Part shown: in pieces, positions 8,948 to 59,659 of the stretch
How the letters are laid out: each line of letters starts with the position of its first letter
How positions within the stretch are numbered: position 1 is the stretch's first letter
NCBI RefSeq assembly: GCF_004010195.1
Contig: NC_057740.1
Location: 21,534,167-21,598,166, forward strand
Origin: Chiloscyllium plagiosum
Taxonomy: Eukaryota
Length of the DNA stretch: 64,000 bases
Reading direction: 5' to 3'
The notes under the pieces: model-generated
What the model was told of the DNA's origin: nothing
Seen by the model: the letters and a program-made list of their open reading frames with translations, nothing else
Database searches by the model: none
Program-made: the position numbers and the translations under genes

Positions 8948-9014
8948 TTATAGGTTTGTCCGTTTCTCATCCTCGATGATTGCAGGGTTGCAATATTCAT
9001 TGGATGCTGCAGTT
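8948..9014 (-). CDS. SMIM24: SMIM24/MAP17-family protein, terminal coding exon (R)TAASNEYCNPAIIEDEKRTNL*
   Basis: Acceptor ttttgattatag; phase 2 matches upstream exons; ends in class I PDZ-binding T-N-L, like SMIM24 STVM and MAP17 STPM; AATAAA candidates downstream near 8752 and 8576. Confidence 0.75.
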
Positions 9015-9112: not shown

Positions 9113-9157
9113 CTTGGAACTTCATTGGTATTTACCTGAGCAACAAATGCAGAGGGA
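9113..9157 (-). CDS. SMIM24: SMIM24-like penultimate coding exon (45 nt, phase 2-2) PSAFVAQVNTNEVP
   Basis: ttttcag acceptor, AG|gtaact donor, open in frame; lies next to an assembly gap. Confidence 0.65.
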
Positions 9158-9171
9158 CTGAAAATCAAATC

Positions 9172-9389
9172 NNNNNNNNNNNNNNNNNNNNNNNNNNNNN
9201 NNNNNNNNNNNNNNNNNNNNNNNNNNNNNNNNNNNNNNNNNNNNNNNNNNNNNNNNNNNNNNNNNNNNNNNNNNNNNNNNNNNNNNNNNNNNNNNNNNNN
9301 NNNNNNNNNNNNNNNNNNNNNNNNNNNNNNNNNNNNNNNNNNNNNNNNNNNNNNNNNNNNNNNNNNNNNNNNNNNNNNNNNNNNNNNNN
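9172..9389. other. Assembly gap (N run)
   Basis: Run of N. Confidence 1.
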
Positions 9390-9975
9390 CTGGTCTGTAA
9401 TTGCCGGGGATTTCCCTATTTCCTTTCTTGAAGAGAGGAATTACATTTGCCTCTCTCCAGTCCTCAGGTACGACTCCAGTGGAGAGCAAAGATGCAAAGA
9501 TCTTCGCAAGTGGTGAAGCAATTGCATTTCTCATTTCCCAAAGCAGCCGAGGACAAATCTGGTCTGGGCCTGGTGACTTGTCAATCCTAATGTTTGACAA
9601 AATTTTCAGCACATCAGCTTCCTCTATCTCTATCCATTCCAGCATGCACACCTGCTCTTCAAAGGTTTCATTCACTACAAAGTTTGTTTCTTTCGTAAAG
9701 ACAGAAGCAAAAAACTCATTTAGGGCTTCCCCTACATCCTCAGACTCCACCCACAAGTTCCCTACTCTTTCTTTGACCACTCTCTTATTCCTCACATAAG
9801 TGTAAAATGCCTTTGTGTTCTCCCTAATCCATTCTGCCAAGCTTTTCTCGTGCTCCCTCCTGGCTCTCCTCAGACCATTTTTGAGCTCCTTCCTTGCCTG
9901 CCTGTAATCCTCTAGAGCTGAGTTTGACCCTAGCTTCCTCCACCTTATGTAAGCTACCTTCTTCCTTTTGACGAG
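9390..9975 (-). mobile_element. Young CR1 LINE ORF2 fragment
   Basis: Open translation KAFYTYVRNKR...DKSPGPDQICPRLLWE...GVVPEDWREANVIPLFKKG...PGNYRP. Confidence 0.92.
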
Positions 9976-11830
9976 ATAGATATCAAACAACTTTACCGAT
10001 GGACTGGAACACTCTGATCTCACTGCTGACTCCACACCAGAAGAACTCTGGGAATACATCAAAGCTGCTGAACTGAATACATCCAACAAGTTCAATAGAC
10101 TCAGCAATAGGAAGAATAGGACATGGTTTGATGAAAATGATAAAGTCCAAAATATGCTGGCAGTTAAGAAATCGACTCATCAGATTCACTAGGTTCAGCT
10201 GACTAGCCAAGAGAAAAAGATAGCTGACTGTCAGGTGTGCAGCAGACTGTAATGTAAACTGGGGAACATCCAAAATGACTGGTGGATCACACTTGGAGAA
10301 AAACCTCATCTGTACACTAATACTGATGACATAAAAAGCTTCAAGGAAACACTAAAATCTGTATGTAGACTAGTGTATTGTTATGAAGATGTGGGTGCAC
10401 TATACCTTTAAGAGAGTTTAAAGCTGGCAGAACTACCTGACAGCACCAAGTGTTCTGAATAAAGTAACAATGTAACAGTTGGTCGAAAGCTAGATTAGCT
10501 GGGTAGCCTGAAGGTGACAAAAACAAATTCAAATTTGGCCAATCAGTTTAAATTATACCCCAAAAAATACCAAACTCCAATCAAGATTGAATTTAGTATA
10601 TTGACAACCTTAAAAGCCAATGATACAATCCGGTGTTTTGGGGGTATAAGAATGGGAAAAGCTGAACAGTTGGAGGAGAACTGCCAAGCCAATGACATCT
10701 GCAGACTGCTCAGAGAATAGCTCTCTTATAGGTACTTTTATCGATCTGTGACCTGTGAAGCATAATCCCTAAGAAGAAGAAAAAAAGACACAGGAAGATC
10801 CAAATAGAAGATTCGACAGCTGGCTGGTTTTGAAAATTTGAATTTTTGATAAATCTTAATCGGGGGGGGTTTATTAGATTAGCATTGTAGAAGGGGAAGA
10901 TAAAAGATAGGTTAGAGGAAGGAGTTGTAAATAGTTGTTAGTTAATTATTCTCTGTTATACCTTAAGAAATAAAGTTGTTAATTTTTACTTTAAATAGTC
11001 CTTGGCCTCTTGAATTTTCACAGATTACTGCATGGGATAAATCTTTTCAGTGTTTCTGGTTTACATTAAGCAGGAAGGTGTACGGTGTGTCATAACAGTA
11101 TCAAAACAAAACCACCTTCAGCAGAATTGAAACACACCAACAAGAAGTCTGTTCTGGATCAGTGGTCAGAATGTTTCAGTGTCAAGTGCATATACTATCA
11201 TCAACTATATCAAGTCAAACCAAATTGGTCAAGGAAACTGTGACCATTATCAATCAGATAAAGAGCAACAAAACACTCGAATTTGATGGAATTCTTCCTG
11301 AAACCTTGAAGAATGTCCAACACTACTTGACATTTCTATGACTTTGTAAGGCCTGCTGGGAACAGGACAGATTTACGCAGGGTATTTCTGATGCTATTAT
11401 CATCAAAGCCAACAAAAGGAAAGGGGGAAGTCACATTGCATCTGCTACCATGCAATCATCCTCCCTTCAATTGCTGGTTAGAACACTTTTGTTCTTGCCA
11501 TTGAAGAAACAAATCTGCCAGAGAGCCAGTGCAGTTTCAGAGCAAGCAGAGGCAACACAGACATGGTATGTAAAGATACAAGAAGAGGGTTTTACCTCTC
11601 TTTCTCAGCCCACACCAAGGCATTCAAAACTGTGAGCATAAACAGACTTTGGAAAATCCTGGATAAACTTGATTGCCCACCTACATCCTGCCACACTGAA
11701 ATAGTTTCACAAAAATTAGTACAGACAAATCAGGCACAAGGTCAGCCTCTGGAATTCCTTCCAAATCTCCAATATGAAGCAGGAATGTGGGCTCACCCAT
11801 AACTAATTCACCACCTTATTCAGTGTAATG
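9976..11830 (+). mobile_element. Decayed RTE-clade LINE, interrupted by an LTR-like insert
   Basis: TWFDENDK motif; DGILPETLK, ESQCSFRASRG and TKAFKTVSINRLWKILDKLDCP RT-like remnants. Confidence 0.7.
10470..11097 (+). mobile_element. Solo-LTR-like insertion
   Basis: Begins tgtaac, ends tgtcataaca with AATAAA near the 3' end; interrupts the RTE remnant. Confidence 0.45.
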
Positions 11831-13351
11831 CTGCAGCAGGCAATAGAAGATATTAAGGAGGTTGTCACAGACACTTTAGGACCAAAGGTCACTTTGAATC
11901 CTCAGATTCCTAATTGCCAGCCTAATTGTCCTTGAGAAGGTGAATTGCTGCAGCTGTCATGGTGTAGGTCCACCCATGATGTTGTTGAGCAGGGAGCTAA
12001 AGGACTTTGATTCAGTGACAGTGAAGAAGAACAATATAATGTCAAGTGGCTATTGCTGTGACTTGGAGGAGAACCTGCAGCTGGTGGTGTCCCATAAATG
12101 TAGACAGGTACTGGTGTGAATGCATTAGCAGGTTTAGTTCAGTGTTTTCGTCATGAGATCAGAGTATTTATTGAAAAGAATTAGCTTCACCTTCAGTACA
12201 CACAAACTGTTCAGTAATTTCTATCTTATTACTACTTCTACTATTTTGTACATTCCAAAAAAAAGAAATATTGAATACAATATATATGGAAAATAGCTAA
12301 AAACAATGAACTGATATCAGACTAAACTTCCTATCGAACACTTTGATCTCAAATTTCAATCAAGGTCAAGGCCTATGTTATATGAATTGCTAACTATGGG
12401 AATAGAAGTGGGAAGGACTCCATTCCACAAAGAGATTTTGTCCCATTTTGCAGCAATTCTCGGGGAGGATAAATGACAAAACTCGTCACTCAATTCTCTC
12501 ACGACATCTAGGCAGACTTAGTAATATTGCCTAGCCTGCTCGCTTACAGACTGCAAGCTGATGATTGTTAGTCTGAAGTACTAAATAAAGGCTCCTACCC
12601 CGTCCAGATTATGATGATCAATCATTGGTTTCACTGGTAGCTGAGTTACTGCAGAAATACCTCATCATTGTTGACCCTTCTTTAACATCCTTTCTTCCAT
12701 CAGTTTGGTTCGTACCTTTAAATCAGCCAGTTCCCATAGATATGGATAGGAATTGAATCATCCCAATTGGGAGCACTGTTGGCCTGCTGCTTGGTCTATC
12801 ACATATTGAGGGTCAATCTCATATGTCATATGTTTTCTGGAGTTTTTGAGCTATCTATCCCTTCTAGAAATGGTTGGTTAGTCTTCAGTTTTTGTTGTAT
12901 GTCCTCCCCTTGACATCCTGCCCAAAGTCAAGTCCTTGACAATTATTTGCCAAACTACAGAAAAAAAAATTAATTACCAGCATGGTGTGGGGAATAGAGG
13001 CAGTCCCTGAATTTTGGGTGATTAATTAGTTTCTGTCATCCTGTGCCAACATCCAGTGAGCTTCAGTAAGGGGAACGTGGCCTTAAGAGCAAATTAAATG
13101 TCACCACCTCTTGAGTGAGAGCACATTTGAGTGGGATTGAGTGCAATCGTTGCATTTCTGACTGGGCTAGCATTGCATGAAGCAGTATCTGTCATACAAA
13201 AAAAATTAACTCAACTAAAACTTTAGTTTGCTTACATTTTTGCTGTGATTTTGGAAGAAATAGTAGAAATTGAAAAAATCTTTATTGTTCACTCAAAATA
13301 ACAACAATTTGTAAAAAGACATAAATGCTTATATGACAATGAAACACTTAC

Positions 13352-13399
13352 CCATCATCACCAGAATGGTTGCTGTCAGAGTCCTTTTGATTCTTATTC
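13352..13399 (-). CDS. SMIM24: SMIM24-like duplicated exon, copy A (48 nt, phase 2-2) NKNQKDSDSNHSGDD
   Basis: ttactttttatag acceptor, GG|gtaagt donor, open in frame. Confidence 0.65.
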
Positions 13400-14610
13400 C
13401 TATAAAAAGTAACACTTGGTTTATTACTAACATAACAGTCCATCCTTCAGTGTCTAGGATACTTTGTTAAGGACTGTACCACATATCTTGCAACCATTAG
13501 ATTTCTTTTGCTGTCAGGATATGGCAGCATTAGCAAGCCTACGTATGATATTAAATACAATTTACCTGGAGAATAGCTAAAAACAATGAAGCAGATATTA
13601 GACTAAACTTCCTATTGAACACTTTAATCCCAAGTTTCAATCAAGATCAAGGCCTATGTTGTATGAATTGCTAACTATGGGAATCAAAGTAGGAAGGACT
13701 CCATTCTGCATTGAGACTTTGTCCCCTTTTGCAGCAATTCTAGGGGATGATAAATGGCAAAACTTGTCACTCAGCTTTCTCACTACATCTAGGCACACTT
13801 ACTTTCATTACCTCGCCTGCTCACTTACAGACTGAGAGCTGATGATTACAGTACTCAATAAAGGCTCCTAACCCAGCCAGATAATGATGATTGATCATTG
13901 GTTTCACTGGTAGCTGAGTTGTAACTGAAGTAACCCATCTTTGTCGGCCCTTCTTCAACATCCTTTCTTCCATCAGGTTGGTTCACAAACTTCAAATCAG
14001 TCTGTCCCCAAAACCTTCTCAATTGTGAGCACATTTGACCTGCTGCTTGGGCTATCACACATTGAGGACTAATTTCACATGTCCTATGCTTTCTAGAGAT
14101 TTTGAGCCATCAATCTTTCATAGAAATGGCTGGTTAATCTTGAGTTTTTTTGGATATCCTGCCTTTGAGTTTCCACACAAATTCAAATCATTGATAATGA
14201 TTTTCCAGATTACAGAAAAGATGTTATTATTTTTTAGTATGGGTGGGTGAATGAAGGTGAGCCCTTAAATTTGGGTGATTAATTAGGTCCTGCCATCCTG
14301 TGCCAACATCCAGTGAGCTTCAGTAAGGGGAACGTGGCTTTAAGAGCAAATTAAATGTCACCACCTCTTGAGTGAGAGCACATTTGAAAGATATTGAGTG
14401 CAATCATTGCATTTCTGACTGGTCCAGCATTGCATCCAGAAGTCTCTTTGATACAATAAAATAACATTAACTCAACTGAAACTTTAGTTTACTTATAGTT
14501 TGCTGTGATTTTAAAGGAGTATTAGAAATTACATACATTATTATTGTTCACTCAAAATAGCAACAATTTGTAAAAAGACATCTATGCTTGTATGACAAAG
14601 AAACACCTAC

Positions 14611-14649
14611 CTATCCTCAGGCAATAGTTCAATGTCCTGTTTCACACAC
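14611..14649 (-). CDS. SMIM24: SMIM24-like duplicated exon, copy B (39 nt, phase 2-2) CVKQDIELLPED
   Basis: ttattttttatag acceptor, AG|gtaggt donor, open in frame, at the same position within the repeat unit. Confidence 0.6.
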
Positions 14650-15853
14650 CTATAAAAAATAACACTTGGGTCAATACAACACAACAGTCCTTCCAATGCT
14701 GTCTAAATACATTATTAAGGATTATATTGCAGATCTTACACCCATTGATTTTTTTAATCTCAGGATATGGCAGCATTAACAAGCCTACATCCAATATTTA
14801 ATACAATTTACCTGGGTAATAGCTAAAAACAATGAAACATATATTAGACTAAACTTCCTATCGAACACTTTAATCCCAAATTTCAATCAAGATCAAAGCC
14901 TATGTTGTATGAATTGCTAACTATGGGAATAGAAATGGGAAGGACTCCATTCCACACTGAGATTTTGTCCCATTTTGTAACAATTCTAGGGGAGAATAAA
15001 TGACAAAACTCGTCATTCCACTGTCTTGCTACATCTAGGCACACTTACTAACAATACCTAGCCTGCTCACTTACAGACTGTGAGCTGATTTTTGTTATTC
15101 CTACAGTACTCCATAAAGACTCCTAACCCATCCAGATTATGATGATTAATCATCAGTTTCACTGGTAGCTGAGTTACTGCAGAATTACCTCATCATTGTC
15201 GGTCCTTCACCAGCATCCTTTCTTCCATCAGTTTCGTTCATGCACTTCAAATCAGCCTGTCCCCATAGATGTGGATAGCAATTTAATCATCATTGACCTG
15301 CTGTTTGGGGGCTATCATTTATTGAGGATCAATCTCATATGTTTTCGGGAGTTTTTGAGCTATCTATCCCTTCTAGAAATGGTTGGTTAGTTTATATGTC
15401 TTTCCCTTGACATCCTGCCCAAAGTCAAGTCCTTGACAATTATTTGCCAAACTACAGAAAAAACTGTTATTAATTTCCAGCATGGTTGTGGAGAATGGAG
15501 ATGGGCCCTGAACTTTGGGTGACTAATTAGCTTCTGCCACCCTGTGCCAACATCTAGTGAGCTTCAGTAAGGGGAACGTGGCTTTGAGAGCAAATTAAAT
15601 GTCACCACCTCTTGAGTGAGAGCACATTTGAATGATACTGAGTATAAACATTGCATTTCTGACTGGTCTAGCATTGCATATAGAAGTCTCTTTAACACAA
15701 TAATACACCAATAGCTTAACTAAAACTTTAGTTTATTTATATTTTTGTTGTGATTTTACAAGAAATAGTAGAAATTGAATAAATCATTATTGTTCACTCA
15801 AAATAACAATTTGTGAAAAGAAATGAGTGTTTGTATGACAATGAAATACTTAC

Positions 15854-15901
15854 TCATCACCGCCAGAATGGTTATTGTCAGAGTCCCCTTGATTCTTATT
15901 C
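15854..15901 (-). CDS. SMIM24: SMIM24-like duplicated exon, copy C (48 nt, phase 2-2) NKNQGDSDNNHSGGD
   Basis: ttactttttgtag acceptor, GA|gtaagt donor, open in frame. Confidence 0.65.
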
Positions 15902-16277
15902 CTACAAAAAGTAACACTTGGATCAATACAGCCCATAACAGTCCTTCTACCAGTGTCTAGGATACATTGTTAAGAACTGTATCACAGATCTTGCGACCAT
16001 TAATTTTCTTTTGCTCTCAGGATATAGCAGCATTAGCAGCTTGCCTCCAAGACTCATTCGCCTTGTAATTCTTTCTCCAATGGATTTACGTACCAGGACA
16101 CTTCAGGAGGCATGAAGGAACATTGTGATATTGGAGTCACATTTTTGTCAGAAGAGGTCCGGGTAGATTTCTTTCCTGAAGGACTTGTTGATCCAGTAGG
16201 ATCTTTACAAAAATCCACCAGCTTTCATAATCATTTTTTCCACTACTAGACTATAACCAAGCTGTTATTATTAAATG

Positions 16278-16552
16278 GATGGTACGATGGCTCAGTAGTT
16301 AGCACTGCTGTCTCACAGCACCAAGGACTTGAGCAACTGTCTGTGTGGCGTTTGCACATTCTCTCTGTGTCTGCATGGGTTTCCTCCTACAGTGCAAAGA
16401 TATGCAGAGTAAATGGGATATCTATGGGAAATGAAGGATTACAGGGATACAGTGGGGGCTGTATCTGGGTGCGATGCTCTTCAGAAGGTTGGTGTGGACT
16501 CAATGGGCCAAGTGACCTGCTTCCACGCTGTAGGGATTCTATGATTCTATGA
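16278..16552 (+). mobile_element. HE1/V-SINE-type tRNA-derived SINE (internally deleted)
   Basis: tggctcagtagttagcactgctg head, tgtgtggcgtttgcacattctc core, gattctat tail. Confidence 0.8.
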
Positions 16553-16671
16553 AATGAAGGTCCATTTAGGTATTAACATTGAACATCTTCATTTGCATCT
16601 CAGGCAGATTGCCCATTCAGATCTAATCAATCGAATTTTAAAAAGTGATGTTCGTCTACAAGATTAATCTT

Positions 16672-17192
16672 TCAGTGTTGAAACAGGCCCTTTGGCCTAA
16701 CAGGTCCACACCGACCCCCCCCTCAAAGAGTAGGAAATGTGTTGCTGGAAAAGCGCAGCAGGTCAGGCAGCATCTAGGGAACAGGAGATTCGACGTTTCG
16801 GGCATTAGCCCTTCTTCCTGAAGAAGGGCTAATGCCCGAAACGTCGATTCTCCTGTTCCCTAGATGCTGCCTGACCTGCTGCGCTTTTCCAGCAACACAT
16901 TTCCATCTCTGATCTCCAGCATCTGCAGACCTCACTTTCTCCCCCCAAAGAGTAACCCATTCCCCCTACCTGATACTTACCTCTGTCTAATGCACCTAAC
17001 CTATACATCCCTGAACACTATGGACAATTTTGCACAGCCAATTCACCTAACCTGCACATTTTCAGACTGTGGGAAGAAACCCACGCAGACACGGGGAGAA
17101 CGTGCAAACTCCAAACAGACAGTTGCCCAAGGATAGAATCAAACCCGGGTCCCCACTGCCATAAGGCAACAGTGCTAATCACTGAGCCACCA
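16672..17192 (-). mobile_element. HE1/V-SINE-type SINE with nested Penelope-like palindrome
   Basis: Reverse-complement SINE head and core at 17040-17190 and tail at 16680-16730, split by an insertion. Confidence 0.8.
16733..16945. mobile_element. Penelope-like terminal fragment forming a palindrome, with hammerhead core
   Basis: 85-bp inverted arms 16733-16817 and 16820-16904; CTGAAGA-AGGGC-TAAT-GCCC-GAAAC-GTC at 16818-16845; caaagagta target duplication. Confidence 0.8.
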
Positions 17193-18057: not shown

Positions 18058-18178
18058 TTTGTACAAAAAATCCTGTTCATTATCAACAGGACAAAGACGA
18101 TGAAAATGAACACAGTGACGGCAGTGAGTCCAATTAGCCAAGGCTGCCAGGCTCCACTGGAGGTTGTTTTTGCTGCGC
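18058..18178 (-). CDS. SMIM24: SMIM24-like exon 2 (transmembrane) AAKTTSSGAWQPWLIGLTAVTVFIFIVFVLLIMNRIFCT
   Basis: QPWLIGL-TM-NR.xC signature of the MAP17/SMIM24 family; ctttcaaag acceptor, AA|gtaagt donor. Confidence 0.9.
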
Positions 18179-25680: not shown

Positions 25681-25741
25681 CAGCCTGTGCATTTAAGTAA
25701 AGTAAAAGTAAAGCAATGAGGACTCGGCAATGAAAAGCCAT
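25681..25741 (-). CDS. SMIM24: SMIM24-like exon 1 (signal peptide) MAFHCRVLIALLLLYLNAQA
   Basis: aaaATGG Kozak context, hydrophobic signal peptide ending A-Q-A, G|gtaagt phase 1 donor matching exon 2. Confidence 0.8.
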
Positions 25742-35320: not shown

Positions 35321-35572
<252 letters not shown>

Positions 35573-40464: not shown

Positions 40465-40802
40465 TTAAGGCAATGTCCCATTCCCAGACTTCGTTTTTTG
40501 CAATTTAATCAACGTATCTGCATACTGAAACTCTGGACTATTTTCGTATTCAAGCATGTCCAGTGCTACCTCACAACTCTCCTTCACAACACGTTCTTCA
40601 TCATGTAGATATTCTTTCAATATTTCCACACACGGTTCTTTTGCAATTGATCCTAAAGCTTCTGCGCACTCGTGACGGACCATGGGATTTTCATCCAGTT
40701 TTTTCAATGCAGTTATAAGTTGTGGAATACTGGCATCATGCTGCATTTGGCCAAAAACATAGCCAATTTCGTGACGAAACAAGGCACTTCCACACCGCAA
40801 AC
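40465..40802 (-). CDS. DOHH: Deoxyhypusine hydroxylase, last coding exon
   Basis: [22 protein letters not shown]...[15 protein letters not shown]...[16 protein letters not shown] with HE iron-binding motifs; tcag acceptor, phase 1. Confidence 0.97.
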
Positions 40803-40982
40803 CTGAGGGAAATATACATAAAATGAAATATCTTCACCCAAATGCAAATCAAAATCACAAATACTTAGAAAAGATCTGGCAAAATTAAGACTGGAAAATC
40901 TACTGATTAAGCTATAAGCCAATTTCCTGATATATAATTATTTGTTGTTGTGATTCTGTTCGCCGAGCTAGGAATTTGTATT

Positions 40983-41022
40983 GCAGACGTTTCGTCCCTT
41001 GTCTAGGTGACATCCTCAGTGC
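40983..41022 (-). ncRNA. Minimal hammerhead ribozyme motif, sense to DOHH pre-mRNA
   Basis: Minus strand reads gca-CTGAGGA-tgtcacctagacaagggac-GAAAC-GTC-tgc. Confidence 0.65.
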
Positions 41023-41304
41023 TTGGGAGCCTCCTGTGAAGCGCTTTCCTCCGGCATTTGTAGTGGTTTGAATCTGCCGCTTCCGGTTGTCAGTTCCAGC
41101 TGTCCATTGCATTGGGTCCAGATCGATGTGCTTATTGATTGAATCTGTGGATGAGTGCCATGCCTCTAGGAATTCCCTGGCTGTTCTCTGTTTAGCTTGT
41201 CCTATAATAGGAAGACAGCTAACGATCCGCACCCATGAACACCAACTAGCCACCTACAAATGCCGGAGGAAAGATCACAGAAGCGCTTCACAGGAGGCTC
41301 CCAA

Positions 41305-41344
41305 GTACTGAGGATGTCACCTAGACAGGGGACGAAACGTCTAC
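41305..41344 (+). ncRNA. Minimal hammerhead ribozyme motif with compensatory stem I
   Basis: gta-CTGAGGA-tgtcacctagacaggggac-GAAAC-GTC-tac. Confidence 0.7.
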
Positions 41345-42551
41345 AACACAAATTTCCAGCTCGGCGAACAGAACCACAACAACGAGTACCCGAGCTACAA
41401 ATCTTTTCAAACTTTGAATAATTATTTGTTAGTAGAGAACTTGAGTATGGTTCAAGATTTTTATCTCACATTAATCATGACAATTCACAAGAATATAAAT
41501 TCAAGCCAGAAACCAACACACAGACTGCATGAAAGAAGACTGTTGATTGGTTGGCAATTGAACTCTGACTGTAGAGCTGTTGCCATGGAGAATGCGCTCA
41601 TTAATACTGAATCAGTTAACATTCAGGGCTGGTTTAAATTTTAAACCAGGCGAGATGACTCCCATTGGTCAGGGCTGTCATCTAGTTTGTTGAGATAGAA
41701 CAGGCATTGTGCACTTCTTTTTCTCTTATCTGCAATAAAGTACACGGAGTATTAATATATGCTTCGCCTAGTATATGCAAGTGAAACTGGAAGGGTCCAT
41801 CACTGAATCATCCACAGACATCATGGAAAGTTACCAGAAATTGAACTGTGTCTGTGATATAAATGCTATGGTTACAAGAGTGGGTAAAAGGCAAGGAATC
41901 CTCTGGGTAATTCAATCCACTGCCTGTCTATTATCAACAAGGCATGAAACTTGTGTGTGATGGAACTCTTTCCTAATCTGGGGGAGAGCAACTTGAATAG
42001 CACTGAAGCAGCTGAACACTATCCCAGGACCAAGCAGCATGGCACTCTATTCAGTACCCTCAACATTCACTCTGTCCAATACCAAAGCACAATGGGAGCA
42101 CTGTGTACTTCTAAAAGATACATTGGAGCAACAAATCCAGACTCCTTTGACACTGCCCTAATCCACAACCATTACCACCTGGAAGGAGAAGAACAGATTG
42201 ATGGGAATACCATCACCTCCAAGGTGTCTGCCAAAGCATATATTACTGCTCCTTCACGATCACTGAATCAAAATCCTGGAACTTCCTTTCAAAAGCACTG
42301 TGGACGTACCTAAAAACCAAAGTCTACAGTAGTTCAAGATAGTAGTTCACCCACATGTTAAAGGGCTGGCTATGTGCTCTCTATCCTAAACAGCATCAGC
42401 TACATCTCATGTACTAATAAAGAAAGAGGCTTGAACTTACAACATTGTGATTTAAAAGCTCAAAAACAATTCAGAATTTTACTATGACGTGCCAAAATCA
42501 AATTCTACTGTAATCAATTGTCTAATGTAAAAGTCTCAATAAAATACATAC

Positions 42552-42786
42552 CATCTCCTAATGCCAAGACTGCTTCTTTACTTCCAATATTCCGCAGGGC
42601 AAACATTGCTCTGTATCTGTCGAACAAGGGCAAGGATTCATCTAGGAGAGCTTCTCTTAATTTCTTAGTATCTTTCTCAGGAGCTGGGGGAGCAGGATCA
42701 ATTGAACAGTATTGGCTTTCATTCTGGTCTTTGTTGTTCTGAAGCCATTCAATTCGTTTAACTGCCAGCTGGCAAGTTTCAGCAAC
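42552..42786 (-). CDS. DOHH: Deoxyhypusine hydroxylase, coding exon 3 (235 nt)
   Basis: VAETCQLAVKRIEWLQ...YCSIDPAPPA...LLDESLPLFDRYRAMFALRNIG; ttag acceptor, G|gtatgt donor. Confidence 0.97.
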
Positions 42787-44703
42787 CTAAACATTTTAAT
42801 ACAAATAAACCATTAAAATAAAGTATAGGAGAGCCACCTAACCAGACTGTGAAGTTACCAAAATGGAGCCAAAACCAGAGCCTCCAAAATCCAACATAAA
42901 CCGCTGTGTTCTTGGCTTCACCAGAACCTCATGAGTGATTGGGTATATTACTGCTAGGACAATAATTTTCTGCAGTGGGTAGTTAACAGTTAACCCAATA
43001 TTTAACTATTATGTTGGAGGCCACGATTTTGTAGTTGCTCATTCCTAAAATAAAAACAAACTGTTTAAAATTCAAAATTAGACAGAAAATTGAATATACA
43101 TTTACATAGGTATACTTCTGCATGCTGTGTATCCTTGCTCACACACAAACTCATTTTTTTCACTTTCCATTCAGCCTCCAAATTACCTGAAGATTGAGAT
43201 CCTATGGGTTCAACACTGAATTCAAAGCTGATGACAATACACCTGTTAACTGGTCTAATCCATTCTATGTGGTGAACACAGCCTTTGTTTTCACAAATCT
43301 CATCTTAATTGTCTGCATTCATTCTATTTTCTCCTTTTGAATCTAAACTACAATTTTCCTATTGTTAAGACAGTCAGTTTATTTCTTGTATTTTTAGTTG
43401 TGGACTAAGATGGAAAAAAGAACTGTTTTAAGTCTGTGGTAAAAACTGCTGGACATTTAAGAAGTTACTGAAACTCATTGTGTGGTGCTTAAACTGCTGC
43501 TTTGTTCAAGCAATGGAAATTGATGTTTGAGAGACTAGCATCGAGTGTGTGCACACACGACTACCATTTAGCCAGCAACTGGTTTGATTGGTTCCTTCAA
43601 TCATGACCAATTGTGCATGCCAAAGGACATCAATTTGACAACATCGGATTGGTTCTTGAACAGCTTGTGGGTATGAAAGATACAACAAGAGGTCTTTGGA
43701 CCACTGGAAGGGAAGGTGGTGTGTATGTGTGTGTCTCTCAAAAAAAAACCTGAGGCCGCTGTAGACAGTAACTAAGTGTGCGAGAATTGTTAGAATCATG
43801 GCAGCCATTTTTGTCACATAATAAAGCCTGGAGACCATTGTGTTTTACATTTAGTGCCTGCCCTGCTAAAAGCCTTTTTTCCCCATGCGTGCAGGAGATG
43901 GTTGGCCTTGCAGTTGTGCCGTTACCTGATAAACAAATTCCTCTCTTTGCATGGAGCCATTCTTCTCTTTGCAAAGACCTAATGTATCTGCTTACCAACA
44001 CTGTCCAGACATAATGTGACTGGAGCTAATGCTGGGCAAGTTGCCTTAGCTTGGTCATGATGCTGCCTAGCTAAAACTGCGATATAAAATAACATTCAGT
44101 TTTGTAGACATTAAGAAATGTAGGTCTGGACAATGTAGGTAGATCTTACGACTGCCCCAAAGTTGCGTAATTAATGGGCAGTGGGTTTGGAACATACTAT
44201 ATAACTTTTAATATCCTGCACTTCATCGGAATGTGTCGGGGACTTCTTCGAACCAAGACGTATTCCCCATGGCCATGATAAAGCTGGTTAATTGCTCAAT
44301 GTCTCCTCTCCTGACTATTTTGTTTTAAACAATTCAGTAAAAGATTTATTTTCCCCAACACTAAAAGACTTTGTAATTAGTGTTACAATCAGCCTGTGTC
44401 TTCTATAAAGAAGTGAAAGAACCTGGAGAAAGGAAACCCAAGAATAGAAAGTCCTGATATGCCAAAATGTATATTTTAACAAACAATGAACTGGTGCTAT
44501 TGAAATGCTTCCCTCCATTCACAAAATTAATGATTTTGCTGTCTGTATAAATGTGTCGGTGTTGTAAAATGGGATAAAAGTTTTAACTAGTAGAGCCATA
44601 CATTGATATTTCATAGCTTTACCTGAAATTAGAATTTGCTTATTTTTAATAAGCAACTGTTCTTGTTAACTGTTCTTGATAATCAGCACTTTCCAAAAGG
44701 GAT

Positions 44704-45662
44704 CGTAACACCATAAACATTAAGTATATGGGACAATACTATGGCTTTAAAAGATGCAGGTTGTCCTTTTTTTAAGCAAAGAGAGGTTGAGACAGAGGTG
44801 ACAAGCAGTTTGCTTCAAGCCAATAAAGTAAACAGGGACCTTTTAATAAACATTGGAACAATAGAAGCAGCCTGAATGGGTGGGGCCAACCTCCCAGAGA
44901 AACAGGATTTTAGTTTTAGCTTTCAGTAGCAGCTTTCACAACCTCAACTGCGACACCTCTTAGAATCACAGAATCCCCTCCACGTGGAAGCAGGCCATTT
45001 GGCCATCAAATCCACATTGACTCTCTCAATAGCATCCCATCCAAACCCACCCCTTACTTCTGTAAACCTGCATTTCCCGTGGCTAATCCACCCAGCCTGC
45101 ACATCCCTTGAAACTACAGGCAATTTAGCAAGGACAATCCACCTATCCTACACATCTTTAGATTGTGACAGGAAGCCAGTGCAGCCTGCAGAAAACCACA
45201 GATATAGAGAGAATGTGGAAACTCCACACAAAGAGTCACCCAAGGCTGAAATCCAGCCAGTGTCCCTGGCACCGAGGCAGCTGTGCTAACCACTGAGCCA
45301 CCCTTTGGTCTTTGCTACAGCTAAAACCTTAAGTTCTCTTGCTGCTACTAATTTTGCATTCGAGACCATCTATTTTATTGAATTTGCCTTTGCCAAGGGT
45401 ATGCTTATGGGATGTTACTATATGAGAACAGTTAATAAGCAGTTTATTACTTTAAAATATTTCAATAGGGTAACAGTTAAGCCAATATTTTTATTTTGTC
45501 TGCATTTTAACTATAGTATATGAATAAAATGTGTTTTGCTTCAAGCCTGGTAGCATGACCAATCAAATTGCATCTGGAACGCAACAACTGGCACTTGTCT
45601 TTAAAATAAGAAAAAAATTAGGGTCCTTGACATGTTTTGAGGGGGTTTGATCTTGTCCATAA
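44704..45662 (+). mobile_element. Solo-LTR-like element with nested HE1-type SINE (44960-45303, minus strand)
   Basis: AATAAA and gggggtttgatcttgtccataa terminus similar in style to 10470-11097; the SINE core is clearly recognisable. Confidence 0.5.
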
Positions 45663-47719
45663 AAAAAAATGGGAAAAGCAAAGCAGACTTGGAATCCAAT
45701 CTGACCAATGCTGTATAAAACAACTGCACCTCTTTGCTTTTATATTTAAAAAAGTCATACACCAAACCTTGTGGTGTTGAGCAGAAATGTCAATTTCTTA
45801 CTGTCTGATAGTACTGCAAAAGAACTTGTGGAAATCTTCCAATTAAGACTTATTTTTGAAAGTCACATTGTTGTTAAAGAAACTTACTACCATTGCCTTG
45901 GATAGATCAACAAAAATAATTTTGTAAAGTAACAACTTTCCCAAATTCTGGAGATGTAACTGCATTTCACATTTAGACCAGATACAAACACATTTGAAAT
46001 CGAATTACATCATGAAGATTTTTCTGGAAACTGAAATCTGTACACCCCTGTTATCAGATAGCATTCTGAAGAGAGAATGGAGACTTGAATTTCTCATTCC
46101 AGTCTGAAGGCAACTGTGAAGGTTCCTTCATTACCTTGGCTCATCCAATCTGAACACAGTAGAACATCTATTTGGAAATTATGCACTGCAGTAACCTGAA
46201 GATAGATACAGAAATCAATAACTTTCAGCATAATCCCAAACATAAAGGAGAAAGCTGTTAAACTACCAGATCTTTGTCACACTTTGGAAGCCTGTTGTAC
46301 ACCTATAAGTAGAATAATTTAAGCAAAGTAATACTTTTTAAGGGGAGTGATAAATAGGGAAATCAGGAGGATATTATGATAAAGATTATTTAATTCCAAC
46401 TTAACCTTTTCATTATAATGGCTCCAAAGCAATGGATTAATATAAACTGATATTACACTGTTAGTTTCTCCCACTCTGGATTTCCAACTTCTAACAAATT
46501 AGATGTTCATCTAATTATTTTTCATCTCCTAATTTTTTGCTTTTGTTGTTGAAAGGCTTCCATTTGCCTTTATGATAAATCCTGGACTTGGTTTGTTTTT
46601 ATTAGCATTTTCTGACATTTCAAGATCAGAGGTGACCAATCTTTCAAAGCTTAAGAGCTGGAGATGATTTGGGGAAATACCAGAAGTGTTCTACCCCTCT
46701 TTTCTAGTTTCTACAGGAAATTAACTGGGTTACCGGCTGGTCCTGTTCTAAATTCCAATAGATGTAATCTAGAACAGTGGTTGGCAGTTTTTGTAGAGAA
46801 CTAAATGAGTCTCATGTCCAATGAATACTCCTACCTCAAACCCATTTCACATCAGATTTTTTACTCCATGTACCCGCTGCCAGAAATGAACAAATGCCTA
46901 ATAGGAGCAGAGAAAAACGTCACGAAACGGAAAAATATTAGAGGGAAATTTATAATTTAAAACAATCTTGAAGCGAGTTTGGGAAATCCAGTAAAAGGAG
47001 AGAAAAATGAGTGTAACAACTTGCATTTATATAGTGCTTTAAACATAAAACACTCTAAAATACTGTACACGAAGACTATAAATTTGACTATAAACTACAA
47101 TGAGACATCAGAATAGATGAGCAAAAGCAAAGGTCTTTTAAAGGAGAAATGAGAGGTATAAAGAGAACAGGTTTAGAGTTTTATGCCTTGTTGGTTGAAG
47201 GGACCAAAGGGGAGAACAGAGGATTTTACTTCACTTATTGGGAGCCAACTTTTCCATTTAATGGCCAGTCTGTTTCTCTCACAGATGATGCCTTAACTAA
47301 GCTTAATAGTTGGAAAAATTCCAGCTCTTCTGTCCCTTTAGTACGACAGCTTGTCCCTCAAAATTAACTGGGTTAATGGCAGGTTAGTTCTAAATTGTCA
47401 CAAACGTCAGCTAGATCATTGCACTTTTTTAAAATGAAAAATAGGGTGAAGGGGATACAGAACTTTACGCAGGTTAAGCCACAGTCAGTTTTGGATAGCA
47501 TCAAGCTTATGGAGAGTAGAATGCAAAAAGGTAAACAGGAGTGAAGGTAGAGGACAGGAAAAAATTGTGGCTACAAGAGCTTCTCTTATTTTGAGGTATC
47601 TTAGGTGTTGGAGGTGATTTCTTCAAATTCCAGGAACAGTAATTACTGCTTTTTTAAGTTGTTGCATTGTCTTGGAACTTTGGGGAAAAAAAGATCAAAA
47701 CACTGGCTCACCAGATGAG

Positions 47720-49045
47720 CCGGACTTTGATGGTGGGAATCCCGAGGGACAGGATTTACATGTATTTGGAAAAGCAAGGACTGATTAGGGATAATCAACA
47801 TGGCTTTGTGCATGAGAAATTATTTCTCACAAACTACATTGAGTTTTTTTAAAAAGTAACAAAGAGGATTGACAAGGGCAGAGTGGTAGACGTGATCTAT
47901 AGGGACTTCAGTAAGGCGATCGACAAGGTTCCCCATGGGAGACTGGTTAGCAAGGTTAGATCTCATGGAATACAAGGAGAACTAGCCATTTGGATACAGA
48001 ACTGACTCAAAAGCAGAAGACAGAGGGTGATGGAGAGTTGCTTTTCAGACTGGAGGCCAGTGACCAGTGGAGTGACACAAGGATCAGTGCTGGGGCCACT
48101 ACTTTTCATCATTTATATAAATGATTTGGAAATGAACATAGGAGGCAAACTTAGTAAGTTTGCAGATGACACCAAAATTGGAGGTGTAGTGGACAGCGAA
48201 GAAGGTTACCTCAGATTACAATGGGATCTTGATCAGATGGGCCAATGGGCTGAGTAGTGGCAGATGGAGTTTAATTTATTTAAATGTGAGGTGATGCATT
48301 TTGGGAAAGAAAATCTTGGCAGGACTTATACGCTTAATGGCAAGGTCCTAGGGAGTGTTGCTGAACAAAGTGCAGGATCATAGCTCCTTGAAAGTAGAGT
48401 CGCAGGTAGATAGGATAGTGAAGGCGGCGTTTGGTATGCTTTCCTTTATTGGTCAGAGTATTGAGTACAGGAGTTAGATGATAATGTTGAGGCTGCACAG
48501 GACATTGGTTTGACCACTTTTGGAATATTGCGTGCAATTCTGGTCCCCCTCCTATAGTGAGGATGTTGTGAAACTTGAGGGTTCAGAAATGTTTTACAAG
48601 GATGGTGCCAGGGTTGGAGAGGCTGAATAGGCTGGGATTCTTTTTCCCTGGAGCATTTGAGACTGAGGGGTGACCTTATAGAGGTTTAAAAAATCATGAG
48701 GGGCTTAGATAGGGTAAATAGACAAGGCCTTTTCCCTGGGTTGGGGAAGTCCAGAACTAGAGAGCATAAGTTTAGGGTGACAGAGGAAAGATTTAAAAAG
48801 GGACCAGGGTTAACTTTTTTATGCAACAGGTACTGTGTGCATGGAATGAGTTGCCAGAGGAAGTAGAGGAGGCAGGCACAATTACACCATTTAAAAGACA
48901 TCTGGATGGGTATAGGATAGGAAGGGTTTGGAGGGATATGGGCCAAGTGCTGGCAACTGAAACTAGATTAATTTAGAATATATAGTCAGCATGGACAAAT
49001 TGGATGGAAGGGTCTGTTTCTGTGTTGTACGTCTCTGTGACTCTA
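47720..49045 (+). mobile_element. CR1 LINE 3' portion
   Basis: NQHGF, SGVTQGSVLGPLLFIIYINDL and KFADDTKIGG; CR1 3' UTR tail. Confidence 0.93.
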
Positions 49046-49212
49046 CGAGCGAGTGGAAATAGTCAAGTCAGGAGCAAGGATGCAGTTTCAGCGGCAGATA
49101 AGAGATAGGGATGCTGTTGGGTAATGATACAGAGATAGAAATAAGACAGAGATGATAGTGTCTCAAGATCATTTTAATTAATTCATAAGAAATGAAATTA
49201 AATTATCCTTAC

Positions 49213-49289
49213 TTCTATTACTGGATCATGTGAGTAATACCTCAATGTTTCAAGGACCTCTGGTTTTCCAATAGCTCCCAGTGCTTCAC
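49213..49289 (-). CDS. DOHH: Deoxyhypusine hydroxylase, coding exon 2 (77 nt) (G)EALGAIGKPEVLETLRYYSHDPVIE
   Basis: Not in the ORF track; tgtttcag acceptor, GAA|gtaagg donor; phases 1 to 0 join the neighbouring exons. Confidence 0.95.
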
Positions 49290-50069
49290 CTGAAACAACA
49301 GCATAAAATGCAATTAAATGGATCTGACATTTATCTGTTGCAGCAGATTGTGAACTGGCTGAATGACTGCAGACATTGACGTAGCTAAGGGACAGAGATC
49401 TACATGAAGCTCTATTTGCAGCATTTTCCTGCAGGGTTCATTTTTAAATTGATGTCTTTGTTAGGAAATGATTCACAAACTTACATAATATTAAATGTGT
49501 GCAAATGTGAAGCGACTTTAAAGATGTCCAACCACTAAAAGCTGGATTTATACATCCAAAAAAAAGGGCTTGAGCTTAACAAATTCTGTTTAAGAAAATA
49601 TACCATATTGTGCATGTGGGGACAGAAAACAAAACACTACAGATGCTGCAGAACTGAAATAAAGACAAAGTACTGGAGAACCTCTCAGGTCTGGTAGCAT
49701 TAGTGAATAGCAAAAGAGATAACATATCAATTAAAAATATTGGAGTTTCCCATTTTATTAGTTACTTAACAGCAATGCTGTTTCTCTCACAGATGATACC
49801 TGAACTAAGCTTAATAATTGGAACAGAATTGGGAAAAAGTCATGTTTACTGCCCCTTTAATATGACAGCTCAATAAAAATATATTTTTTTAAATGACTGC
49901 TTGTCTCTGGAAATTAGGTGAGTTATTGGCTGGCCTTGTTCTAAATTCTAATAAACATTATCTAGATCTTTGCCAGCGCCTTTTAAAATAAAATTCCACA
50001 TTTCCTGCAACTGCAAGTATTTAGGCTCGATATCAGAATCGTAGACACAACTTTTAAATGGTCTATTTC

Positions 50070-50540
50070 GAGCCTCTCGGCGCTTTTAAGGTCGGTAGGC
50101 GGCCGATGCATCACCTGCTTCGTGTCTGACCATAGGCTCCTGGCTGTGGTCCTGTAGCACCCGGGTCAGGATGGGGATAGCCCGCTGGTCCTGCATCTGG
50201 CCCAGGCAGTAGGCCAACTCGTGCTTCAGCAGCGCCGACTCGTCCCCGAAGCCCCTGGAGATCCACTCGATAGCCAGCGGGCCGCCGAGGTTCCGGAGGG
50301 TGAAAAGCGCACGGAAACGCTCTTTCAGCGGCCTCGACACATCCACCAAGATCCGCCCGATCGCTTCCACCGCCTCGTCGTCCCGCATCGTGACCGGGCC
50401 GCGGCTCCACTGCAGCTCCTTTCACCCCCGGAGGACCGGCACCAGCAACCACGTGACTCCAAATCACCCATCATCCTCTGGGGCCCATTGGGCCAACCCA
50501 TGGGGGTAGAATGGGCGGGGGGACCCCGGGTGAATCCATT
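50070..50540. promoter_or_regulatory. CpG island over the DOHH start, with E-box and GC box
   Basis: Abrupt GC/CpG-rich segment; CACGTGAC at ~50450, GGGCGGGG at ~50513. Confidence 0.6.
50115..50388 (-). CDS. DOHH: Deoxyhypusine hydroxylase, first coding exon (274 nt)
   Basis: RFRALFTLRNLGG...SALLKHELAYCLGQMQD..AIP.L..VL.D...EPMVRHEA; G|gtgatg donor. Confidence 0.97.
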
Positions 50541-54312: not shown

Positions 54313-54728
54313 TGGAGAAAGTGAGGACTGCAAATGCTGGAGACCAGAGTTGAAAAATGTGGTGCTGGAAAAACACAGCAGGCCAGGCAGCATCCGAGAA
54401 GCAGGAGAATCGATGTTTCGGGCATAAGCCATTCTTCAGGAATGAGGCTGGTGTGCCAAGCGGGCTGAGATAAAAAGTAGAGGGGAGGGAACTTGGGGGA
54501 AGGACGCTGGGAATACGATAGGTGGAAGGAGGTTAAGGTGAGGGTGATAGGCTGGAGAGGGGGTGGGGGCAGAGAGATCGGGAAGAGGATTGCAGGTCAA
54601 GAGGGCGGTGCTGAATCCGGGGATTGGGACTGAGATAAGGTGGGGAGAGGGGAAATTAGGAAACTGGAGAAATCTGCATTCATGCCATGTGGTTGGAGGG
54701 TTCCTAGGCGGAAGATGAGGCGCTCTTT
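54313..54728 (-). mobile_element. Penelope-like element 3' end (second family)
   Basis: Reverse complement of 55350-55655; degenerate CTGAAGA...GAAAC core; runs into the gap. Confidence 0.75.
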
Positions 54729-54856
54729 NNNNNNNNNNNNNNNNNNNNNNNNNNNNNNNNNNNNNNNNNNNNNNNNNNNNNNNNNNNNNNNNNNNNNNNN
54801 NNNNNNNNNNNNNNNNNNNNNNNNNNNNNNNNNNNNNNNNNNNNNNNNNNNNNNNN
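54729..54856. other. Assembly gap (N run)
   Basis: Run of N. Confidence 1.
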
Positions 54857-55274
54857 TATAAGGAAAGGATGATCAGTTTGATACAATATGCATTAGAGTT
54901 TACAAAATGAAGGATGATCTTATTTTTTGCATAGAACACCGGAAAGAGTCTGCAACAGAAGCCAATTACACAGCCAATTCCATTGTCTACTTTGCTTGTC
55001 ACATCTTTTAAGAGAGTAGACAATAGAGATCCTGGAGAAGCAAAGTACCTGAGCTTTGAAAAGGGACTGATTTAACGCTGCACAAAATATTAAGCTGTAA
55101 AATAAGAGGACATGGGTTTGGGAGGAGGTCATTCTCCTAGATAGAGGGCTGGTGAGCCAACAAACTGCAGAGAGATTGGATAGCTGTTTCGTTCATGGTT
55201 GGCAACTTTTGGGGTTCCATAGAGTTCAGACCACACGACCTGAAGATTTACCATTTATTGTATCATTTGGATGA

Positions 55275-55657
55275 GAGTTGAAAAGTGTGGTGCTGGAAAG
55301 GCGCAGCAGGCCAGGCATCATCCGAGGAGCAGGAGAATCGACGTTTCAGGAATGTAGATTTCTCCAGCTTCCTCATTGCCCCTCCTCCCACCGTATCTCA
55401 GTCCCAATCCCCAGATGCAGCACCGCCCTCTTGACCTGCAATCTTCTTCCCGACCTCTCCGCCTCACCCCCTCTCCGGCCTGTCACACTCACCCTCACCT
55501 CCTTCCACCTATCGTATTGCCAGCACCCCTCCCCCCCGACCTTTTATCTCAGCCCGCTTGGCACACCAGCCTCATTCCTGAAGAAGGGCTTATGCCCGAA
55601 ACGTCGATTCTCACCTCCTCGGATGCTGCCTGGCCTGCTGTGTTTTTCCAGCACATT
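55275..55657 (+). mobile_element. Penelope-like 3' end with short inverted terminus and hammerhead core (55578-55605)
   Basis: CTGAAGA-AGGGC-TTAT-GCCC-GAAAC-GTC; 55287-55347 is an inverted copy of 55597-55655. Confidence 0.75.
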
Positions 55658-57681: not shown

Positions 57682-58797
57682 TTAGCTCTCCCCTTGACTC
57701 ATAAAGTATGTTGACAATACCTGACGAATTTCTTCGGCTTGCCTATCAACTGTATTATCTGATATTACTTGCTTTGGCTGAGGAAATTCCTCCTGCCCAA
57801 GAACACCCCTCCAGTCATTATTAAAACTATCATTATGCTTTTCACAGATATTATGAAGAATGCAACAGGCAGTGATCATTGTTGGAATAAGTTCAAGGCT
57901 ACAGTCATTCCTCTTGAGAAGACATTGCCAACGAGCTCTGAGTCGTCCAAATGCATCGTCTATCACAGTGTGAGCTTGGCTTAATCTGTAGTTAAACACA
58001 AGTTGATGCTGTGTTAGTTTTGCTGTTTCAGAATACGGCTTCAGGAGCCACTCCTGTAGTGGATATGAAGAACTGCCTATCAGTAGGTATTTCACTGGCG
58101 TTCTCAGAATATCTCTTGAGCAGTCAGGGAACAGTCTTCCTTCAGTAGCCATTCTCCATAGAGCAGAATTCCTCAGATTTTTTGTATCAAGAGAACTCCC
58201 AGAAAATCCAGTACATACATCCCAGAATTTCCCACTGTCATCAACTACACCTTGTAACACAACTGAATGCCACCCCTGTTTGTTTAGGTAATCTTTGTGA
58301 TACTGTGGAGGGGCAATGATAGGTATATGGCAACTATCAATGGCACCTACACATTGGGGAAAGTCCCATTTTCGAACAAACATCTGAGCTATTGTTTCAT
58401 ATTCTTGATTAGCGGGCATTTTGAGATACAGAGGCTTTAAGAGAGACACAATGGCATGACAAACCTCTCTTACGCATTTACAGACAGTTGATCGACCTAT
58501 CCCAAACAAATGACTAATAATTCTATATTCTACATTAGTAGCAAGTCGCCAAAATGCTACTGCAACTCTTTTTTCCAAGGGGAGTGCAGGACGAAGGTGA
58601 GTGTTTCGTCGAGAAACCATGGGTTTCAGCTTATTGCAAATATGAAAAAATGTTTCCTTAGACATTCTGAAATTTTCCAGCCAATCATTTGGCTGAAAGT
58701 CCTTCATAACCACACGTTCCCACCAGTCTGAAGTTCTTGGCTTACACCAGATTCTTGTACGACAATTACACCTACAACCTCCGCGTGCCATCACCAT
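57682..58797 (-). CDS. PIF/Harbinger transposase-derived protein (HARBI1/ALP1-like, DDE_Tnp_4 type), exon 2
   Basis: WLENFRMSKETF, HTH region, FPQCVGAIDSCHIPI, YLNKQGWHSVVLQ, YPLQEWLLKPY, FNYRLS..H.VI..AFGRLRARW and CCILHNIC; tttgcag acceptor, phase 0; AATAAA at 57560-57565. Confidence 0.92.
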   Translation of the reverse strand: MVMARGGCRCNCRTRIWCKPRTSDWWERVVMKDFQPNDWLENFRMSKETFFHICNKLKPMVSRRNTHLRPALPLEKRVAVAFWRLATNVEYRIISHLFGIGRSTVCKCVREVCHAIVSLLKPLYLKMPANQEYETIAQMFVRKWDFPQCVGAIDSCHIPIIAPPQYHKDYLNKQGWHSVVLQGVVDDSGKFWDVCTGFSGSSLDTKNLRNSALWRMATEGRLFPDCSRDILRTPVKYLLIGSSSYPLQEWLLKPYSETAKLTQHQLVFNYRLSQAHTVIDDAFGRLRARWQCLLKRNDCSLELIPTMITACCILHNICEKHNDSFNNDWRGVLGQEEFPQPKQVISDNTVDRQAEEIRQVLSTYFMSQGES

Positions 58798-59659
58798 CTG
58801 CAAACATCAAAGAAAGTATTATTACAATTGCACAGCTTAATTATCCAGTGAAACTGCTAACTTGAGATATCTTTATTTAAAAGTTATAGTATAAAGGACA
58901 TACGTTGTTATAGCCAGCACCTGCTTGCTGGTATATGATGGTATCGTAATATTTACAAACATGACAGACATTTACAAAGAAACACACACTTCAGGTATGA
59001 TAACACAACTGTTGCCAAAAATTTCTTTTGGATGAATATCTTACTAACTTCCTATTTAAGTCACTAGAAATGAGGTTTTAAATTATTATACCTAGGGGAA
59101 ACAAGCAAAGCTAATTTAAAACAACTTGTATGCACCAGAATATATAATAAAACTACATAGCAAGGAGTGTATTCACAGAATGGATGAACCCACATTTTGT
59201 AGGGTTTTTTTTAAGAAGTATTGATTACAGCAAAGTGTGTTGGAATGAAAGAAAGAGGCTATTGGTGCATAATAAGATTTTACCACTTTAGGAAGCATAA
59301 CAGTGTCTCACAAAGTATATAAATTTCAGTAAGGTCTTAAGCTTGCAATTGAATGTAAATTTGTTTTTTCTCAAGTTTAGAAAAACAAATTTAGACAGAA
59401 TTAACCTGAATTCTATTTAATTAACTTCCATTCAGACATTTACAATCAGGTATGGATGGTCATTTCATACGGGCACAGGTGCCATCTCAAGTGTCTCAAT
59501 CAAAACACAAATACGATTAAAGGAAAAATACATTAGCTTGGCATACAAAATAGGCCTTTGGAATTTTGCTTAGGGTCCAAACATTAGGGTTTAACTATTG
59601 CAAGATTCACAATTACTTTCCAATCCAAAAAAGAATTTTGACAATTAGTTGTCTTTTTA

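Follow-up and report, generated by a model that had tools for sequence, protein, structure and literature searches.

The SMIM24 gene and its neighbourhood

The window analysed here, 64,000 nucleotides from the bamboo shark Chiloscyllium plagiosum, carries on its minus strand a gene for a small single-helix membrane protein of the MAP17 family, and one part of the protein tail is encoded there by three tandem exons (Table 1). The transmembrane exon matches the Pfam MAP17 domain (PF15807) with an E value of 1.8e-11 and 44.6 bits, and the complete RefSeq protein XP_043576666.1 (SMIM24-like, C. plagiosum), to which this exon is 100% identical, does so with 61.4 bits, the cut-off being 29.6. MAP17 chains in the PDB are matched over residues 10 to 62 (E value of 3e-4), and the best protein matches carry the name SMIM24. 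Upstream on the same strand lie a SMIM44-like exon (35321-35572, 66% over 50 amino acids) and exons of DOHH (40468-50421, E value of 6e-56). Human SMIM24 adjoins SMIM44 and DOHH, and on this order the two neighbours fit SMIM24 and not PDZK1IP1. The domain match, the identity to the RefSeq protein, the names of the best matches and the neighbours all identify the gene as SMIM24, a member of the MAP17 family, and uphold an assignment that had been proposed from the nucleotides alone. The portions of a paper that place human SMIM24 with NFIC do not mention DOHH (PMC11773902).

The protein has the build of SMIM24 (also MARDI or C19orf77, in the MAP17/PDZK1IP1 family), with a leader, one MAP17-domain helix, a polar tail and a hydrophobic end of the S/T-x type, in addition to the SMIM44 and DOHH neighbourhood. 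Class I PDZ-binding motifs have the form S/T-x-hydrophobic at the C terminus, and the terminal RTNL is a putative motif of this class. Related cartilaginous fish models end in TSL, TNL, TNF, SNF, SNL, or TDF, the exception being a truncated Amblyraja model.

XP_043576666.1 (127 amino acids) holds the three exons, named A1, B and A2, as real coding modules between the membrane helix and the PDZ-type C terminus, which is where the sequence-only reading had placed them. The same reading had joined them downstream to an exon starting at 9157, and this part is not supported, as RefSeq runs from A2 directly to the last exon at 9014 and the segment in question ('PSAFV') occurs in none of four carpet-shark proteins, XP_043576666.1 among them. 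This stretch is probably not an exon. Its acceptor is visible for 14 nt before a gap of 218 N, and it has two possible donors, after 22 nt and after 45 nt, found in no model; splicing from the 22-nt donor would put the rest out of frame, with loss of the PDZ end. Beside the gap lies a fragment that we take to be LINE-like, and Pfam returned nothing matching it.

Some further features of the region were noted. The RefSeq model of Pristis joins SMIM44 to SMIM24, and similar fused models are found in other vertebrates, reflecting either read-through or an annotation merge. An inverted pair of ~320-nt repeats (87%), ~660 nt apart with a 128-N gap between them (54729-54856), occupies 54362-55654, and a 374-codon open frame on the minus strand (57685-58806) contains DDE_Tnp_4 and HTH_Tnp_4 domains and presumably encodes a Harbinger-type transposase or a domesticated relative.

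Table 1. Features of the SMIM24 gene and its exon array, with positions counted from the first nucleotide of the window
Feature	Position	Strand	Basis
Exon 1, coding part; signal-peptide-like leader, ATG at 25741, phase-1 donor	25681-25741	-	Frames; N terminus of XP_043576666.1
Transmembrane exon, 121 nt, phase 1-2, MAP17 domain	18058-18178	-	PF15807; identity to XP_043576666.1
Repeat unit U1 (exon A1 + flanking intron)	14794-16050	-	Self-BLAST, unit alignment
Exon A1, 48 nt, phase 2-2, polar 16-residue module	15854-15901	-	Unit alignment, frames, RefSeq model, module tree
Repeat unit U2 (exon B + flanking intron)	13537-14793	-	Self-BLAST, unit alignment
Exon B, 39 nt, phase 2-2; orthologous to module 1 of the whale and zebra shark proteins, where it has 16 residues	14611-14649	-	Protein comparison, module tree
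Repeat unit U3 (exon A2 + flanking intron)	12268-13536	-	Self-BLAST, unit alignment
Exon A2, 48 nt, phase 2-2; orthologous to module 2 of the whale and zebra shark proteins	13352-13399	-	Protein comparison, module tree
45-nt intronic block, invariant across U1, U2 and U3	15587-15631, 14343-14387, 13086-13130	-	Longest invariant run, p=0.003 vs column shuffles
Assembly gap, 218 N, last intron, beside LINE-like fragment	9172-9389		Sequence
In-frame 45-nt exon-like stretch ('PSAFV'), probably no exon	9113-9157	-	Absent from 4/4 carpet-shark protein models; abuts N gap
Last exon, coding part, ends in RTNL + stop	8948-9014	-	Frames; RefSeq model

A tandem array of three exon-plus-intron units

Self-BLAST of the window returned one array (12268-16050, minus strand) as its sole large internal repeat, which aligns with itself over 2581 columns at 80% identity when shifted by one unit and over 1281 columns at 84% when shifted by two. 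Tandem Repeats Finder, whose period limit is 500, did not detect the array. It is made of three exon-plus-intron units of ~1.26 kb each, and their identities of 87.2% for U1/U3, 82.2% for U1/U2 and 81.9% for U2/U3 substantiate the tandem triplication suggested by the sequence-only reading. Each unit carries its exon ~150 nt from its start. The exons A1, B and A2 also agree in position and length (48, 39 and 48 nt) with what had been described, being bounded by AG and GT, stop-free and in phase 2-2, and the reading frame is kept in all eight subsets of the three. A simple exon filter over 9390-16900 returned these exons as its sole candidates, a result that is descriptive only since the pyrimidine threshold of the filter was the value found in A1, B and A2 themselves. 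The units are not equivalent and follow the order A1-B-A2.

The 45-nt invariant block in the introns sits within a stretch of ~100 nt that is 89 to 94% identical among the units, and it is either a conversion tract or a conserved regulatory element; an Rfam search over 12200-16200 returned nothing matching it. Two SNORD53/92 matches from the same search lie on the strand opposite the gene, score 26.6 and 23.4 bits against a gathering threshold of 46 bits, and were rejected as chance. Approximately 800 nt upstream of exon A1, the intron contains a near-perfect palindrome (16723-16912, 96% over 182 nt) composed of two head-to-head pieces of a repeat present elsewhere in the window. The pre-mRNA would fold there into a long hairpin, which might be edited or influence the splicing of A1.

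Module number and exon use in cartilaginous fish

Three homolog searches and one profile search gave named SMIM24 models from 17 cartilaginous fish species, in which modules were counted by eye from the protein; outside Chiloscyllium their status as exons is deduced from length and position. One module is present in six species (Callorhinchus, Heptranchias, two Scyliorhinus, Mustelus and Narcine), two modules are present in Rhincodon, Stegostoma, Hemitrygon and Hypanus, three in Chiloscyllium, Pristis, Rhinoraja and two Mobula, and five in Amblyraja and Leucoraja. At least two modules, of ~16 residues each, are therefore found in 11 of the 17 species (two to five per protein), so that multiplication is not unique to the bamboo shark lineage and the idea of a lineage-specific spacer is not supported. 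Over the whole range of one to five modules, the length changes of 13 to 18 residues keep the frame.

In contrast to the models of Heptranchias, Scyliorhinus and Mustelus, which have a single middle module, that of the bamboo shark has the module threefold, and the whale shark and zebra shark proteins hold B and A. The rays and skates Pristis (XP_051894262.1), Rhinoraja (XP_078280286.1), Amblyraja (XP_032903217.1), Leucoraja (XP_055514597.1) and Mobula (XP_062888308.1) have two to five modules in the same place, of 14 to 18 residues, most of them with 16 and ending in Arg. Skates show duplication of a two-module block, giving A-B-A-B-C. This two-module repeat is near-identical in the five-module models of Amblyraja and Leucoraja, and the skate array was either still expanding recently or is misassembled in both species. 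Isoform X2 of SMIM24 in the turtle Carettochelys has a 13-residue tandem repeat at the same position of the tail, a hint that such duplication has also happened beyond the cartilaginous fish.

A single SMIM24 model was found for C. plagiosum, and all three exons are included in it. RefSeq models are predictions, and the co-inclusion is an annotated one. In the zebra shark (Stegostoma), isoform X1 contains B and A and isoform X2 contains B without A, which makes cassette skipping in SMIM24 plausible.

Relationships and age of the modules

A tree was built from 29 modules of 13 species over 20 columns, with S. torazame, M. birostris, Amblyraja, Callorhinchus and Stegostoma X2 absent, and its supports are weak. 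In this tree, the carpet-shark A modules form a clade of their own (UFBoot of 100) apart from the batoid modules, A1 and A2 are sisters (UFBoot of 92), and the carpet-shark B modules (UFBoot of 96) join the single module of catsharks and houndsharks (UFBoot of 73). The batoid modules fall elsewhere than carpet-shark A or B and do not group with them by position. Whale shark B compared with the single modules of Heptranchias and Scyliorhinus gives Z scores of 3.5 to 3.9, whereas A against the same modules reaches at most 1.6. Together, the tree and the Z scores would make B the nearest to the ancestral exon, with A arising in a carpet-shark ancestor and A1 probably being the youngest copy; they suggest separate expansions in carpet sharks and in rays and skates, where the module boundaries are taken from protein.

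Jukes-Cantor distances between the introns are 0.14 for U1/U3 and 0.19 to 0.20 for either of these to U2. The consulted sections of one paper give a dS of 0.061 to 0.111 for the whale shark/zebra shark pair over ~50 My (PMC13100897). Provided that this rate carries over to the introns of SMIM24, the distance of 0.14 corresponds to ~63 to 115 My and that of 0.19 to 0.20 to ~85 to 160 My. The A-B-A order is out of reach of a single unequal crossover between these two units and needs an extra step, which could have been duplication of a B-A block with the first B lost afterwards, or else conversion of the first unit. Whale shark and zebra shark, compared here by their proteins, may have a silent first unit, which would touch the dating of A1 to the bamboo shark line.

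Divergence between exon copies and their introns

Exons A1 and A2 are identical at 41 of 48 positions and their introns at 1026 of 1176 (87%; Fisher p=0.66), and this equality gives no sign of constraint on the residues. Exon B behaves differently, being identical to A1 at 19 of 39 positions and to A2 at 21 of 39 (49 to 54%) while the introns are 83% identical (Fisher p=1e-6 and 4e-5, respectively). The edit cost between the B and A exons exceeded that of all 24 non-overlapping intron windows in seven of eight settings and of 23 of the 24 in the remaining one. Between B and A of the zebra shark, 12 of 16 residues are different, which requires at least 18 base changes in 48, and a simulation whose intron distance was borrowed from the Chiloscyllium window rather than taken from zebra shark introns gave P=0.003 for this difference at d=0.2 and P=0.01 at d=0.25.

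Exon divergence above that of the introns is not what neutral drift at one clock would give, and either positive selection on A or conversion confined to the introns may account for the excess. Part of the protein difference between A and B may stem from compensating small indels, by which a few codons are shifted. Along the units, the 255 informative sites fall into 104 runs, a clustered pattern (p=0.001). This clustering, together with the invariant 45-nt block, suggests that some gene conversion has taken place.

Interpretation of the array

We favour, with moderate confidence, ordinary tandem exon duplication in SMIM24, affecting a tail that is flexible and tolerant and links the membrane helix to the PDZ-binding end. 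A single ancestral 48-nt exon in phase 2-2 would have been copied with its flanking intron in a carpet-shark ancestor, giving B and then A, and the A unit would have been copied again in the bamboo shark line to give A1-B-A2, the mechanism being unequal recombination or block duplication. The symmetry of the exon, and the flexibility and low constraint of the stretch that it encodes, would have kept each copy in frame and made it tolerable, and the additions would have been nearly neutral. The default transcript would include all three exons and encode the 127-residue protein, with occasional cassette skipping likely and mutual exclusion not.

Several observations were counted for ordinary duplication, namely the presence of A1, B and A2 together in RefSeq and of B and A in whale and zebra shark, the sister relationship of A1 and A2, the closeness of the U1 and U3 introns, the equal identity of A1/A2 exons and introns, the frame-keeping range of one to five modules and the block duplication in skates. 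Published work on MAP17 was counted on the same side. The consulted parts of the cryo-EM study of human SGLT2-MAP17 describe the single helix alone as contacting the transporter, the intracellular region not being visible (PMC10803289), and a review, in the sections used here, reports that MAP17 without its PDZ motif stimulates SGLT2 unimpaired, that mammalian MARDI/SMIM24 stimulates SGLT2 and binds PDZK1, and that both proteins have PDZ-binding ends (PMC7462921). By this comparison, the modules would add 16, 13 and 16 residues to the flexible tail and leave unaltered the part by which the protein acts on the transporter. Counted against ordinary duplication were the divergence of the B and A exons, far above that of the introns, and the extra step required for the A-B-A order.

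The array resembles tandem exon duplication as described elsewhere, with homologous exons and flanking intron in tandem and in the same phase, and convergent exon duplication in orthologous genes has been described as well (PMC9013439 and PMC9741552 for the former, PMC9741552 for the latter, in the sections consulted). Those sections stress mutually exclusive substitution and conservative changes, whereas SMIM24 has additive annotated forms, a flexible linker and drastic changes between A and B. The exons A1, B and A2 are already in RefSeq, and additive tandem exon duplication is a known kind of event; in the open-access literature, judged by titles and the openings of abstracts, we found no account of this array or of its recurrence.

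An adaptive origin seems unlikely to us. In this reading, the module multiplied independently in carpet sharks and batoids, the copies diverged by selection, and regulated skipping tunes the tail as a modular tether; its suggestion that tail length or phosphorylation sites alter the docking of the transporter-SMIM24 complex on PDZ scaffolds is equally doubtful. The Stegostoma models with and without the A module point this way, as do the A/B divergence beyond the intron clock, including the zebra shark simulation, the separate carpet-shark A clade, and the fact that for tens of millions of years the modules have kept an open frame without stops. However, A1 and A2 evolve at the rate of their introns, compensating indels may explain part of the protein difference, two isoform models occur in only 1 of the 17 species among the matches listed (where clustering at 90% identity can hide isoforms), and the tail is dispensable for the stimulation of SGLT2 by MAP17 in the consulted sections of the review (PMC7462921). 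Taken furthest, and then as a speculation that we would not expect to hold, SMIM24 would be a hot spot of parallel exon multiplication in which one copy was selected into a module rich in Ser, Asp and Asn as its introns remained similar. Regulated skipping would in that case govern how far a PDZ tether on an epithelial transporter partner extends, with a possible link to the physiology of the elasmobranch kidney or gut.

Still less probable is an ancient array homogenised by gene conversion, in which the introns were converted and the exons spared, B is an island of divergence, and species with a single module lost or skip the other copies. The clustered informative sites and the invariant 45-nt block agree with this, and three-module arrays are also present in Pristis, Rhinoraja and Mobula, but carpet-shark A and B do not group with batoid modules by position, and the single module in five shark and chimaera species of separate lineages would require several losses. 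The U2 intron distances, moreover, fit ~85 to 160 My at the rate from the consulted sections of PMC13100897 and make strong conversion unnecessary. Some conversion is compatible with ordinary duplication.

The sequence-only reading had left cassette and mutually exclusive exons as alternatives, and the first finds partial support in Stegostoma X2 while the second is not supported. Use of one of A1, B or A2 per transcript is very improbable, even though mutual exclusion is common for tandemly duplicated exons in the consulted sections of PMC9013439 and PMC9741552: models of 11 species stack at least two modules, the annotated bamboo shark model among them with A1, B and A2 together, and no enforcing mechanism was seen. 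The introns of ~1.2 kb between the modules pose no steric block to joint inclusion, exon lengths are all multiples of 3 and a frameshift therefore cannot remove double inclusion, and a search for complementary intron pairs over 9390-16900 returned none at E<1 save local hairpins, weak or distant pairings being possible.

Merging of haplotypes in the assembly, one of the outcomes that the sequence-only reading had named as fatal to it, deserves almost no credence, for although the assembly has gaps, one of them within SMIM24, and the RefSeq model may derive from the same assembly and so not be independent, the units differ by 13 to 18% with many indels, far beyond allelic difference, and two other sharks have an ortholog of B and a separate one of A2.

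Ordinary duplication in SMIM24 gives no pointer to a new kind of system. As a case of additive tandem exon duplication within a flexible linker it is clean and can be dated, and it comes with a corrected gene model that has no exon at 9157. That exons B and A diverged more than their introns is a small sign, open to testing, of either selection or selective conversion, and the natural series of one to five modules in sharks and rays is a ready test of tail length in PDZ scaffolding by the MAP17 family.
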